Shown: piece after piece, positions 1 to 59,994 of the stretch
Position numbering within the stretch: position 1 is the stretch's first letter
Layout of the letters: every line of letters begins with the position of its first letter
Origin: Octopus sinensis
Taxonomy: Eukaryota
Direction: 5' to 3'
Length of the DNA: 64,000 bases
NCBI RefSeq assembly: GCF_006345805.1
Contig: NC_043025.1
Location: 2,480,001-2,544,000, forward strand
Position numbers and translations under genes: made by a program
Notes under the pieces: model-generated
What the model was told of the DNA's origin: nothing
The model's input: the letters and a program-made list of their open reading frames with translations, nothing else
Databases searched by the model: none

Positions 1-239
1 CTAGACAGTTCTCCATGTAATGGAAATGTGTCAGACCACTTTTAGTCACTTGTAATATTGTCAGAATCTTTCCACAGCATATCCCCTTTATAGAATTAGT
101 CTCCCCTAAATTCCACTTGAGAATTAATGTCATAAATTCCAATTCAATCCGTACATTTCGGTAACTTTCTTATTTAATTTTGCAACGTTTTGTGTTTTCT
201 TTTTGTTGTTGTTGAAGGAATTACTGTTATCTATTATTC

Positions 240-3200
240 GTTTCGTTTTCTGGTGCTAGAACGTGTAATTACAAATTGTTTCTGTGTTGGTACCTCAAAT
301 GTGTCGTACAATACATTCATGAGAAATTCACTTCTTTTGTCTGATTTTTCCTTGAATCAGGTTATAAGTTGGTTAATAAGTCTTTTATGTTCGATATTTG
401 TTTTTACCTTTTACCAGGAATATCATTCTTGCAATTTATAAAACAATTGTACCATCCTCCCAGCCTTGTTTAATATATGTATAGGTCTTTAATAAAGTTT
501 GTCAGCTAACTTGAAGAATTTTGAAGTATTATTCCTTTTTTTTATATTTTCACTCGGTATCGGCTGATCAAAGATGGATCTGATTATTCTAACAAACATC
601 AAATATCTTTGTAACCAGAGATGTCTGCTTTCTACATTTATGCACTTCAGACCGTGTTGAAAAACATTCCCCAACAACGAAGTGACATGAAACCTTAAGT
701 GATTTTGGCCACGGGTGCCATTTCGTGACGGGTGTATTTGGAGCTAGAGAACAGCGTATTGCATACTATCACTATATCTTCAATGTTACAGTCCGTTGTC
801 TAGCAGTTTCGCTAGATATTTATTTCTTTTACTCATATACTGATAATAACGGACGATGATCTGTCTGTATTCAAAAACTTCTGCCGTGTAAAAATCTATG
901 CAATTTTTTATGGCAAAAATAATTACAAGAGCCTCTTTTTTGATTTGGCTGTAATATTTTCTGCTGATATCATGAACCACCGCCTTCATGCTACCATCTT
1001 TTTATTTATGTAGCATTTCTGCGCCGATTGAGTATTCAGAGGCATCTGAAGTTACAACATTCTCCGCTACAGAATCGAAGCGTGCTAACAACAAATCAGA
1101 TGTTAATATTTTAAAATTTCGTCGAATTCCCTTTGACAATTTTCAGAGCAATTTCAATTGACATTTTTTAAATACATAATCTACTGTAACACTTACCCTA
1201 TGCATATTTAGAATATAATTTTGGTAATAATTTGCTTGTCTCCAAAGCAATTATGTAACGTCGTTATATTGCCTCTGCCTTCAACGGATCTGGTCCTCGT
1301 CCATTTCTTTCAAGTGTTTGTCCAATTCACGCTTTCTTTTTCAACGTAATCCCTAATTTTTTCGAACATATATATTACTTGCTCTACATGTTGATCCCGT
1401 GATTCGCTTTTAATAAGTATATCATCCATATATGGAAATGCAAATTCACTATCCGCTAACACTGCATCCATAAGCTGTTGAAAAATCGGTGTGACATTAA
1501 AGACATATACTAACCTGTTGTATATATATATATATATATATATATATATATATGTGCGTTAATTTTTAGGTATTTATAGCATTCATCGTCTACGTTAATA
1601 TGTAGGTATGCCACCGTCTAATTTTGCAAATATATCCCCCAGGGTAGGTAGCTGATAGTGGAACGTTTTATGATACTCATTTAAACCAGTGGAAAAATCA
1701 GCATACACTCTGATTTTGTTTATTTGTTTCTAACGCTGCAAAAGCTTATCTGTTCCAACGATGCAAAAGTTACAGATCGCTTATATTTAAATACCGGTTT
1801 GGCATTTACTTTTACTTGGAACTTCGTTTTCGTTTTGATGCTGAGATCTAATTTATCAGAGAGAACTTCAGGAAAAATCTTTTAAAATTATTTTTACAAA
1901 TCGTCCGCCGATTCATTTGTATTGGCAAGAAAATCATTCACATTTTTACTGAAAAGATTTATGGGGAGTTCCCATAAGTTAAACAATTCTATTCCGTGTT
2001 CTGAATAAATTTGTGATAGCTTTGGTTTTTAAGGTTTTCCTACGAAATGGAACGTGATTAATCATTACGCCATTAAAATGTAATTATTTTCCTGAAACAT
2101 CACCTGCAATTTTCGAAATGTCTTTTAATCTAGGAATTCTGTTTTTTTTCTATGTATCTGTGTTAATTATCGAGATATCACTGCCCTTATCTAGTTGCAA
2201 CTTTACGTACACAAATTTCCTTTGAGACTGTTCGTTTTTTGTTCACCGATAACCTGTTTTCGTGTTTTTTTTCTGTTGAAATGTTTTCCAGGTTTGTTCT
2301 ACAGTGTGATATTTTATGATCTCTCTTGCCACATTTGACTCCTATTATATTTTTAAACGGGCAATTACTTTTAAAATGTTGACTATCGCACCCATAACAT
2401 TGATTCGATATTCACATTTGTTTCTCTTATTTCTTATCCGTTACGGTGGAGACACTAGAATATGAGAGCAATCTTTTTCTTCAATTTCGTTTTGGGCGTC
2501 GCTTTCTTCATTTTTTTCTGCGTCGTCTTCCTGACATTCTTCTGCTTCTGTTTGTAGAGTTACTTTTTGTCGAGTTCTAATTTTGTTGACATCCGTGAAC
2601 ATATATCTCCATCTTTGCTTGCAGTTACGCCTTAAACCAAAAATATGCATTTGGACATCATCTTAATACATATGATTTGAATTTTTTACACTTTCCGTTA
2701 ACATCCCCCGGACAGGTGACGAAATCTTTATGTTATTGGACAAAATATAAAAACTGACCTCAAGTATTTAGCAGAGAACTTCCTTCACTTAAACGTTTTG
2801 ACAAAATTTCGTTTTGGGATTTTAACCGGGCAGTTACTTTTAAAATGTAGACCACAACATGGACTCCTTCTTGACATTATTTTCTCTTATTTCTTATCCG
2901 TTACGGTGGAGACACTGGAATATGAGAGCAATCTTTTTTTTCTTTTTTCTCTGCGTCGTCTATCCTAGCATTCTTCTGCTTCTGTCTGAAGAGTTAATTT
3001 TCGTCCAGTTCTAAATCATTTGATAAAATGTTAATAGTTTTTATTGAAACAAATCTCACTTGACTTCATGGGCAGAATATAATTACTATATTTTTTGTAT
3101 TCGGCAAGGGATACCTGTCTTACAAAGTAGTGGTACTATTTTTTCTCTCAGATCAATTTTTAAATTCTTCTTTGAGAATTTATTCGTATCTTCGAAAATA

Positions 3201-3470
3201 TGCAGAGAACATAATCCCATCTTCTGGATTATGACTGAATTCTTCAATAGAGATTGCTACGCTGTCTGGCAAGTTCACGCCTGAAGTATTTTTAGACTTC
3301 TTTAACATTGATTCCAGCAACTCTTGGTTTTCTTGTTGTTGCTGTTGTAGTTGCTCTTGTTGTTGTTACTATTGTTGCTGTTGCAACTGCACCACAGACG
3401 CCAATAAGCCTTCTATCTTAAACAATTTTTCTTTGGTTTCATACCCATCCCAAACAAATTTAAACGTCCA
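240..3470 (-). mobile_element. Decayed Ty3/Gypsy LTR-retrotransposon gag-pol remnant
   Basis: RNase H-like YYSQIKKEALVIIFAIK (ORF 786-989), RT xDDILIK near 1410-1435, protease-like LDKGSDISII near 2165-2200; many stops and frameshifts. Confidence 0.75.
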
Positions 3471-3619
3471 TCGCAAACTCCGAAGAACTCTTCGCCACTT
3501 TTAAACCCTGGTTTGGAACGTATGATTTAAGGAATCAGGGGGAAAGAAAGTGTTTACACGATGCGAATCGAGTACTCAACACTCTCTGTCAATGGCTCAC
3601 AGTGAACTATTTATCAATT

Positions 3620-58000: not shown

Positions 58001-58480
58001 GCTTGCTAACCGCAGGACGGGTGGTTTCTTGTCTTTTAGCTGCTTGCCTGGTGCAGAGGCTGCATGCCGCTTTTCAAGTCAAACTCTTAGCTCCAAGCAC
58101 CCAATGAAGCAGGCGGCCTGTGGCGGGTCAGCACCTTATTAACTGGGGGCTGCCCAGCTTGAGGTGGGCAGTAGCAAACCAATGGGACACGGAGGTCCCT
58201 CCCACCGTCAGAGGTGACCCGTAGCGCCCATATCTTACGCCAATTTGAATGGACTTATCACTCGTGACTTTACCTCCCGTATTTTTTCTGCCACTTTTTA
58301 CAGCAGCACTGAAGTGTCTTCTCCAGTTTTGCGCAGGCCTGGGCTAGAAATAAGAAAATCCCGGGTAGCCCAATCGTCAGGATTCTTCTCTCGACCTTGC
58401 TGATGTAGTCCAAAGGAGTGCAGAGCATTACGTTTGGCACCAGCTTGGTTGCAGGAGCTGCCGGAAGACTGTCGAATCGA
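55040..58480 (-). mobile_element. RTE LINE (paralog of 13400-17080, same flanks)
   Basis: MLFADDAAL, NYRGISLL, YLGS, LLYGSETW; junction sequences shared with copy A. Confidence 0.95.
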
Positions 58481-59137
58481 ACACTAAACTAATTATAATA
58501 ACATACATAATTATAATAACATACATACATATAGCATATAAGAAAAGGATACAAGTAATTATTGAACAACATGAATATAAATTAGTAAAATAACTTGCAG
58601 CTGTTTCAGCCCATAGATAAAAGTATCTCATTCTGCCTTTATTAATCAAGTGTATTGAGGTAATAGGCAGATGACAATGAGGTACTTGTATATATCTCCA
58701 GGGTTCCTCAGAGATTATCAAGTACAATAATAATTATAAATATGAATATAAAATAAACAAAATACACCAATTTGAATATATATATATATATATTATGGCT
58801 GCTCCCTCGTTATCGAGTATGGCCATTACACGAAGCTTAACTGTTACTGGTTCTGTGATCGAACGTGAGTTTTTGGCCCAGCTAAAGATCTACAATGTCT
58901 TGTACCAAATTGGCAACTAAAACCTTTGCTGGTAATAGACGGCTGCAGTTGTAAGTGGGCTTCATGTACATAAATGTATATACATACATACATACCACAC
59001 ACTATATGGTTATACATAATTAATTATATATATATATATATAATATATATATACATACATATATATATATACATATGTATATATATATATATATATACAT
59101 ACATACATATATGGTTATACATAATTATATATATATA

Positions 59138-59535
59138 GTGGCTGTGTGGCAAGTAGCTTGTTTACCAACCACATGGTTCCGGGTTCAGTCCCACTGCGTG
59201 GCACCTTGGGTGAGTGTCTTCTACTATAGCCTCGGGCCGACCAAATCCTTGTGAGTGTATTTGGTAGATGGAAACTGAAAGAAGCCCGACGTATATATGT
59301 ATATATATATATATGTGTGTGTATGTCTGTGTGTGTGTGTGCGCGCGTGTGTTTGTATGTCTGTGTGTGTGTGTATGCGCGTGTGTATGTCTGTGTTTGT
59401 GTCCCCCCACATCGCTTGACAACCGATTCTCGTGTGTTTATGTACCCTCAATTAGCGGTTCGGCAAAAGAGACCAATGCAATAAGTACTGGGCTTACAAC
59501 GAATAAGTCCCGGGGTCGAGTTGCTCGATTAAAGT
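59138..59535 (+). mobile_element. tRNA-derived SINE (paralog of 17730-18186), 3' end replaced
   Basis: Same A/B boxes and body. Confidence 0.85.
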
Positions 59536-59994
59536 CGGTGAAATCTGATTTTTCCCTGTAAATTTGGATTCATTCCCTAATATTTATTATTATATACATA
59601 TATATATATATATATAGAAATATTAAATTTCTAAATGTCTCGAAGAGACATGAGCGGTGAGTATACATCCACTCTATATATATAAATATATACTGAAACA
59701 TACATACACATCTACATCCATAAGTACATATAATATTCAGTTATTACTAATCTTATTATTATTAATATTAGATTAGGTGTATTCTGCTATTCACAGCAGA
59801 TAGTATATGAAAAATAAAATATAGAATAATAGTTATCGCCATACTAATATGGCATTCTTATACAAATGAGAATAAAGCTGTCCGCTTATTAGCTCCATGA
59901 GGCCATCGCCTTAAGTTAGCTATTTGATACACAAACTGTATCCATATAACCTTCGAACAAGGGAGGTCAGTCGCTCCACACTACTTGATCGACA

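Follow-up and report, generated by a model that had tools for sequence, protein, structure and literature searches.

The stretch of DNA analysed here, a 64,000-nt window at positions 2,480,001–2,544,000 of contig NC_043025.1 (C29) in the 2.72-Gb genome of Octopus sinensis, carries two copies of a large cassette, each holding a single 72-nt exon that encodes one leucine-rich repeat (LRR). These exons, designated A and B (Table 1), are probably two neighbouring one-repeat exons of a single LRR-bearing adhesion G-protein-coupled receptor (GPCR) gene, which gains and loses such cassettes and whose variable face is likely under selection. By self-BLAST, positions 1–18509 recur at 37854–59828 (18.5 kb versus 22.0 kb) as one collinear chain, which runs from the pair 1–131/37854–37986 to the pair 18338–18509/59657–59828 and differs at 824 of 13,490 aligned non-microsatellite sites (6.1%). 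The initial annotation had noticed this duplication as a block of 18.5 kb (21.9 kb in the second copy) repeated about 38 kb downstream, and had named one 72-bp exon as its sole apparent host coding content. Both statements held up: among 12 other long open reading frames (ORFs) scanned in the window, six match reverse transcriptase (RT), endonuclease, zf-RVT or GIY-YIG domains and six have no match. Homology continues past both window ends, from position -1225 onward on the upstream side and over the distal part listed in Table 1 on the other, and the duplicated unit is therefore the whole exon-to-exon interval, interrupted by indels and mobile elements. Exons A and B have cag and gtaag borders and lie in phase 2 on both sides, with AT + A joining as Ile; their matches to Pfam LRR_8 are weak and under the Pfam cut-off (E 0.009 and 0.002). 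Protein and DNA searches of the interval between them found no further exon of the family.

The analysis covered the 800 kb around the window and five more regions. One gap-free contig (C29:2,334,530–2,557,963) carries six copies on the same strand, and A and B come last among them. These copies are spaced 36.9, 28.3, 29.4, 47.2 and 37.9 kb apart, their intervals share 2 to 24 kb with one another, mostly at 5–10% substitutions (roughly 4–10% overall), and no inverted intact LRR exon was found inside the contig. Two minus-strand family exons do occur on a separate gap-bounded contig, where the orientation could be a scaffolding choice. A DNA search with exon A and its flanks gave a match at all 40 loci scored (the best 40 of 54 candidates), and an intact exon was present at 29 of 30 returned loci, the remaining one sitting at the end of a 3.3-kb contig. 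At least 49 copies of the family exon were collected, at least 44 of them distinct. The related cassettes measure 5–47 kb, each with one symmetric 72-nt exon. Flank homology defines 39 sites in long regions, with an intact exon at 35, an older LRR exon type at two and a lost exon at two; with the older-type sites set aside, the intact exon is thus kept at 35 of 37 cassette sites. All named homologues belong to Octopus species. Word-index protein searches with the 40-residue frame of exon A and with the LRRNT exon of the family gave no match, which is weak evidence, and a HMMER search recovered octopus relatives that the word-index search had missed.

What distinguishes the exons from the cassettes that carry them is their divergence. 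Between A and B, 18 of 72 exon nucleotides differ (25%), against 0 and 1% in the 100-nt flanks and 6.0% in the cassette (binomial P 2e-7); 12 of 23 whole codons differ, all 12 with a change of residue. Pathway counting gives 15.75 nonsynonymous differences over 54.5 sites (P 6e-7 against 6%) and 2.25 synonymous differences over 14.5 sites (P 0.2). The unplaced contigs C3514 and C1669 match B's cassette at 1.6–3.2% substitutions over several kilobases and carry exons 7% and 21% away from B. Among the 44 distinct exons, the mean exon distance is 0.21 versus 0.08 and 0.13 in the flanks, and in 896 of 946 pairs the exons are further apart than the mean of their flanks. At least 97 substitutions have accumulated in exons without a stop (chance 0.009). 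Variation concentrates in codons 1, 3, 4, 22 and 23 (entropy 2.6–3.4 bits, 9–14 residues each), and three core codons are invariant. In the LxxLxLxxNxL motif these five codons presumably correspond to LRR positions 5, 7, 8, 2 and 3. AlphaFold models of two relatives have a beta strand that spans the exon junction, and entropy, models and this assumed numbering together place the variability on the concave beta-sheet face. That is where the variability of the variable lymphocyte receptors (VLRs) sits, according to the available text of PMC3900441. The exons are thus far more diverged than the surrounding DNA, mostly at predicted binding-face positions, which suggests that they likely form an inherited, fast-changing recognition surface. 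Selection quite likely drives change at these predicted residues, and the diversity appears to be inherited, not somatic.

The remainder of the receptor can be read from better-assembled relatives, whose order is signal peptide/LRRNT, up to 15 LRR exons, cap, LRRCT, Cys-rich, HRM, GAIN/GPS and 7tm_2. One gene on the minus strand of C29 opens at 3,034,309 with an exon that encodes a signal peptide and LRRNT and ends in phase 2, proceeds through 15 family exons at 4.6–16 kb spacing to a cap LRR and an LRRCT-type exon (as far as 2,862,724), and has, past the LRRCT, two Cys-rich exons, linker exons and two HRM-like exons. Five 3′ halves share a closely related LRRCT exon, and four of these carry GAIN, GPS and transmembrane (TM) exons: two at C29:9.04–9.29 Mb, one on C9912 and one at C29:1.44–1.49 Mb. 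Both arrays at C29:9.04–9.29 Mb continue directly from family exons into HRM, GAIN, GPS and TM exons; apparent frameshifts occur in some 3′ halves, one of them in TM5–7. An O. vulgaris model named as adhesion GPCR G6-like (P0001) has an exon of this type together with cap, LRRCT and 7tm_2 (E 8e-28). The exon subfamily hence presents both hallmarks of adhesion GPCRs (class B2), namely GPS/GAIN before TM1, in the GAIN and GPS exons of four of the five 3′ halves, and a secretin-type 7TM (7tm_2), in P0001 and in the TM exons of four of the five. The converging neighbour gene, of the older LRR type, runs through GAIN-like exons, GPS (Pfam E 2e-13) and 7tm_2 (E 2e-13 and 6e-6), and the GAIN-7TM region of a relative resembles vertebrate ADGRG2 and ADGRG6, whose chains are its best structure matches (E 8e-52 and 7e-48). 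A receptor of the LGR/RXFP class was rejected because the TM exons match 7tm_2 and not rhodopsin-type 7tm_1. We regard it as very probable that the gene is a single one, with a long LRR solenoid on an adhesion-GPCR stalk. To judge from sequence, the 5′ end of the window array is likely the unplaced contig C10236 (LRRNT) and its 3′ end C9912 (GPS and 7TM exons): of the six intervals that follow the exons on the contig of the window, four have 14–21 kb in common, at about 7%, with the C9912 intron before the cap. The end of the window's contig, compared with seven unplaced contigs, overlaps none at allele-level identity.

The 15-exon gene is the one 3′ half of the five without GAIN/7TM and ends in the family's last exon. 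Over its full extent (C29:3,034,309–2,826,300) it holds a second copy of the linker exons, and O. vulgaris P0002 ends alike; because P0002 shares this end, a secreted form appears conserved, and the family likely includes such a predicted secreted sister form. The usual cleavage triad of a GPS is His-Leu-Thr, which the GPS exon at C9912:72,890–73,070 does not have, unlike the genes at C29:9 Mb and 1.4 Mb; this copy may possibly encode a non-cleaved receptor. ADGRA receptors (GPR124/125) have a few conserved N-terminal LRRs plus an Ig domain, whereas a domain scan of 16 relatives gave no Ig family match; after the LRRs the present family has Cys-rich exons and a beta-alpha-beta-beta-alpha-beta domain in place of Ig. 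The labels Ly6-like (for the Cys-rich exons) and SEA-like are impressions only, the P0001 model being poor overall (pLDDT 47), and a fold search with that model gave no match at E 0.001 or better; matches labelled tail1 come from a dispersed repeat and represent no exon. Between the two converging genes, HRM exons and introns (C29:2,793,289–2,795,124 and 2,837,429–2,835,584) are 90% identical versus 65–80% in the remainder, suggesting conversion from gene to gene. The O. bimaculoides relative P0021 has the order LRR-GPS-7tm_2-Death, and a Death domain after the 7TM was likewise noted for one sequence in PMC6408891.

Change by one cassette at a time can be followed in the two genes at C29:9 Mb. 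The second has a 13,988-bp one-exon unit duplicated in tandem (0.73% substitutions, the exons differing by one replacement change), and the first, 0.4–2.5% diverged, has this unit once. The step is one repeat whether the two genes are paralogues or haplotypes, and an assembly duplication is possible. With the six related units 28–47 kb apart, this gain in a sister gene supports the proposal in the initial annotation that the array grows by one-exon cassettes. Two exon losses, a partial one at C29:2,558,903 and a complete one at C9912, are harmless to the frame because the exons are symmetric. On a finer scale, a pair of identical exons on C18, separated by 38 kb, has no more than 0.8 kb of flank in common, the two variable ends of the 44 exons are uncorrelated (Mantel r -0.10), and four-gamete incompatibility is found in 291 of 435 site pairs, a pattern that recurrent mutation could also give. 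We infer that unequal crossover adds and removes cassettes and that short gene conversion acts within them; repeat number may then be polymorphic. The C18 pair follows an LRRNT exon at C18:17,344,925 that has a GC donor in place of GT.

Expression was assessed in assembled contigs of five runs (X1–X5, from two studies with two organism labels) that are only guessed to be RNA. Contigs in X1, X2 and X5 cover the exon without its conserved flanks and X4 adds short repeat pieces, which makes exon-not-flank coverage in three of these four runs, from two studies; X3 also has low-depth intron contigs. Exon A is covered by RNA-like contigs of related copies, its flanks being uncovered. In both studies the joints lead from exon end to exon start, with the variable start of the next exon between, which is head-to-tail splicing. 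Four junctions, compared by eye, could be placed on the assembly; all join direct neighbours, and none skips a placed exon. In X2 and X3 a C10236-type LRRNT end runs on into family exons (two splice junctions), and a 99-nt X3 contig matches exon B without difference and then passes into the start of an exon found on the unplaced contig C8976. Two-piece contigs of X2, whose second piece has 0 differences to both A and B, were set aside for claims about exact or chimeric exons, for which the single-piece X3 match to B alone was retained. At the protein level, the readable part of the mucus proteome supplement of PMC10138644 matched one of ten short family motifs, none subfamily-specific, and the matched peptide belongs to the related LRR protein LOC115225305; the available text of PMC11431876 lists adhesion GPCRs in skin mucus, unspecified which.

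The cassettes are also populated by mobile elements and satellites (Table 1). The broken long interspersed nuclear element (LINE) was inserted before the duplication, since both cassette copies carry it, and the distal cassette part includes a LINE with RT and zf-RVT. We take the GIY-YIG ORF in the DNA peculiar to copy B to be Penelope-like. A 546-bp AT-rich unit is repeated in tandem at window positions 26275–28850 (about 4.7 copies, 99.2–99.8% identity), the only such array in the window. Elsewhere, two genes have a 69-bp satellite of 5–20 kb immediately in front of their LRRNT exon, where it adjoins a helicase-like ORF, presumably a Helitron. An older compact LRR exon array, with five exon types recurring in order (period about 5), occupies C29:2,202,103–2,243,888 and 2,752,279–2,769,055; it probably forms the first part of the converging full-length receptor, which scaffolding would have divided, and one of its introns contains a 13-kb short-period satellite (C29:2,753,766–2,767,112).

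Table 1. Features of the window and related sites. Plain numbers are window positions, except for the placed junctions, which are positions on C29.
Feature	Position	Strand	Remarks
LRR exon A	7855..7926	+	72 nt, phase 2-2, one 24-residue repeat
LRR exon B	45848..45919	+	72 nt, phase 2-2
GT-AG interval between exons A and B, putative intron	7927..45847	+	37,921 bp
Cassette copy A, in-window part	1..18509		homology extends upstream of base 1
Cassette copy B, collinear with A	37854..59828		6.1% substitutions
Distal cassette part	28979..35501		matches 64672–70551 past window end, about 5% substitutions
Broken LINE retrotransposon (endonuclease, RT)	13245..16679	-	common to both copies; copy in B at 54873–57829
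Copy-B-only DNA, about 6 kb	48987..54872		weak GIY-YIG ORF and other element ORFs
69-bp satellite sites	C29:3,036,130–3,048,816; C29:2,625,335–2,647,547; C18:17,345,172 onward		
Placed junctions	9,169,808->9,199,994; 3,015,421->2,999,658; 9,051,933->9,056,616; 9,056,616 exon->its cap		

Several parts of this picture have published counterparts. Group 3 of Ritschard et al. 2019 (PMC6408891) is an octopus-specific, clustered expansion of adhesion GPCRs with LRRs in 5 of 22 sequences, and the present family is likened to it by its architecture of GPS, 7TM and LRRs and through O. bimaculoides P0021. The available text of that study reports signs of positive selection on branches and at no individual site, and does not describe one-LRR exon cassettes, repeat-number change or truncated forms. 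Genome searches with marker exons gave 73, 59 and 66 matches (E up to 1, 0.01 and 0.001, respectively), so that about 59–73 matches per marker exon indicate a larger family than the 22 sequences of group 3. Brown-algal ROCO LRR-GTPases, proposed immune receptors with shuffled LRR exons (PMC3341825; PMC11378527), likewise encode one LRR per 72-nt phase-2 exon, with variable repeat number that differs between recent duplicates, diversifying concave sites, and recombination within and between genes. They are, as far as these texts go, intracellular ROC-COR GTPases with inverted intronic LRR copies, whereas the octopus receptor is extracellular with 7tm_2, its cassettes of 5–47 kb are full of mobile elements, and 16 relatives gave no ROC-COR GTPase Pfam match. 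With the VLRs of jawless vertebrates the family has in common LRRNT, variable 24-residue LRR modules, cap, LRRCT and concave variability, but in VLRs a process resembling conversion builds the receptor in somatic cells out of donor cassettes (PMC3900441, available text). The VLR type is characterised by an incomplete germline gene flanked by unspliced donor cassettes and by clonal assembly through cytidine deaminases. The octopus modules are spliced exons within the gene, with placed junctions in genomic order and a GPCR or short secreted-type C-terminus; a VLR-like somatic donor array was rejected because exons with splice sites lie between LRRNT and LRRCT and are spliced in place, head to tail. 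LRR-bearing octopus adhesion GPCRs (PMC6408891) and one-LRR exon shuffling with concave selection in brown-algal ROCOs (PMC3341825; PMC11378527) are already in print, in the text available; a search of listings of the open-access literature turned up no description of cephalopod GPCRs with hypervariable LRR exon cassettes.

In the reading that we favour, one gene would carry a long curved LRR solenoid on an adhesion-GPCR stalk, with a length set by cassette-scale crossover of exon-plus-intron units; short conversions would reshuffle parts of exons, selection would favour new concave-face residues, and the solenoid would recognise ligands at body surfaces that themselves change fast, with molecules of microbes or parasites as the likeliest candidates. 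On the features of the sequence, we consider a role in recognising foreign ligands evenly balanced. A number of observations weigh against this account. In print, this receptor group has been interpreted in terms of neural adhesion (PMC6408891, available text). Eighteen differences between the cassette copies are likewise reached in two overlapping 72-site stretches of the shared LINE. At the variable codons of the 44 exons, the synonymous distance is raised too (pS 0.35 versus pN 0.60), among the six exons of the window's contig pS is 0.66 versus a pN of 0.57, and at the other 17 codons pN about equals pS. A single-ratio codon model gives omega 2.4, with a log-likelihood 10.5 better than omega 1, but it fits 90 parameters to 23 codons, and recombination makes omega come out too high; an omega of 14 for six codons chosen after seeing the data is circular and was left unused. 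Direct splicing of A to B, which the initial annotation had proposed, is in keeping with the borders and phase of the two exons on either side of the 37,921 bp, and A presumably does splice to B, but this junction is absent from the five runs of RNA-like contigs. Those contigs, being assembled, could have been joined wrongly through exon cores that several copies share. The exon in front of a B-like exon in X2 and X5 begins with 19 nt that the assembly lacks, which fits repeat polymorphism and also species differences or unassembled copies. Finally, the window's contig stops 32 kb past exon B and carries neither end of its gene, and the link to C9912 is based on shared intron sequence and an 8-letter loose end.

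The alternatives differ in which part of this account they replace. The most radical has the copies as an assembly artefact (uncollapsed haplotypes) or places A and B in separate tandem genes. The region is indeed fragmented, redundant unplaced contigs carry identical exons (C9607/C10241 and C8530/C8132), and some exons contain frameshifts; six mutually 4–10% diverged units with different insertions nevertheless stand on one gap-free contig, and a divergence of 6% makes haplotypes, an option raised in the initial annotation, unlikely. Its other option, two tandem paralogous genes, predicts first or last exons between the copies, and protein and DNA searches for LRRNT, cap, LRRCT, HRM, GPS, 7TM and last family exons found none in the window or anywhere in C29:2,244,769–2,750,935. 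Separate tandem genes for A and B are therefore not supported, and the head-to-tail splicing of two studies agrees; we judge artefact and separate genes together very improbable. A second alternative keeps the gene and removes the positive selection: exon divergence would arise as a side effect when old, diverged copies convert one another, and purifying selection would act on the scaffold only. The four-gamete incompatibility, which is high at all distances, the uncorrelated exon ends, the identical exons in otherwise unrelated C18 cassettes and the raised pS at variable codons speak for it. In 22 non-independent pairs with flanks at most 4% apart, however, 146 changed codons alter the residue and 18 are silent, and variation at the five surface positions is several-fold over the intron rate, for which relaxed constraint alone is insufficient; this explanation seems improbable.

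Two further alternatives concern what the variability is for and how it is used. Chemical self-recognition exists between octopus skin and suckers, and the variable face of the same gene could be a cell-identity or self-recognition code (arm-cord/sucker wiring, skin versus sucker, kin) instead of a pathogen sensor, which we consider unlikely. The closest solved folds of a relative are the neuronal LRR adhesion proteins LRIG1, Lingo-1, NGL and LRRTM2, but matches of this kind mirror the LRR class in general. Within a species, wiring receptors tend to be conserved, yet here cassettes about 2% apart hold exons 7–21% apart (B versus C3514 and C1669). Expression points both ways in the available text of PMC6408891, where the main sites of expression of the octopus-expanded group in O. 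bimaculoides are axial nerve cord, suckers and skin and adhesion or guidance is the authors' preferred role, but gill and skin expression is reported in C. minor. It is likewise doubtful that the exons form an optional pool from which transcripts take differing subsets by skipping or mutually exclusive use, a Dscam-like repertoire atop the inherited variation. Because all exons are symmetric, any skip keeps the frame, and NCBI models of three sister-subfamily genes have 13, 6 and 3 isoforms that differ by whole 24-residue repeats; the first exon after one LRRNT end is not the same in X2 as in X3, and within X3 the exons that follow B-type ends differ. All four placed junctions nevertheless join direct neighbours, automated isoforms over near-identical exons could be mapping artefacts, and the different followers could be alleles, paralogues or species differences. 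Exon skipping may still add to the diversity. Returning to the single adhesion-GPCR gene with a selected variable face, it is tempting to extend it to a VLR-like octopus repertoire: dozens of adhesion GPCR genes, membrane-bound and secreted, with LRRs rewritten by cassette gain, cassette loss and exon conversion at such a pace that each animal would have its own set, possibly with exon skipping, and with skin, suckers and gills as the places where pathogens, or self and non-self, would be recognised. We advance this extension tentatively, as a possibility on the weaker side.

Beyond the initial annotation, the analysis identifies the class of receptor, finds the hypervariability confined to the exons and points to short conversion events. 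Growth of a repeat protein here proceeds in steps of tens of kilobases per 24 residues; such steps break assemblies and hide genes from annotation, and the family is thus probably undercounted. The available text of a review of invertebrate immune diversification (PMC13428168) names FREPs for molluscs and no diversified receptor for cephalopods. A GPCR with an ectodomain that evolves like plant NLRs, algal ROCOs and lamprey VLRs would, if this reading is true, be a concrete cephalopod candidate, in which a variable binding surface would be coupled directly to G-protein signalling and accompanied by a likely secreted sister form.

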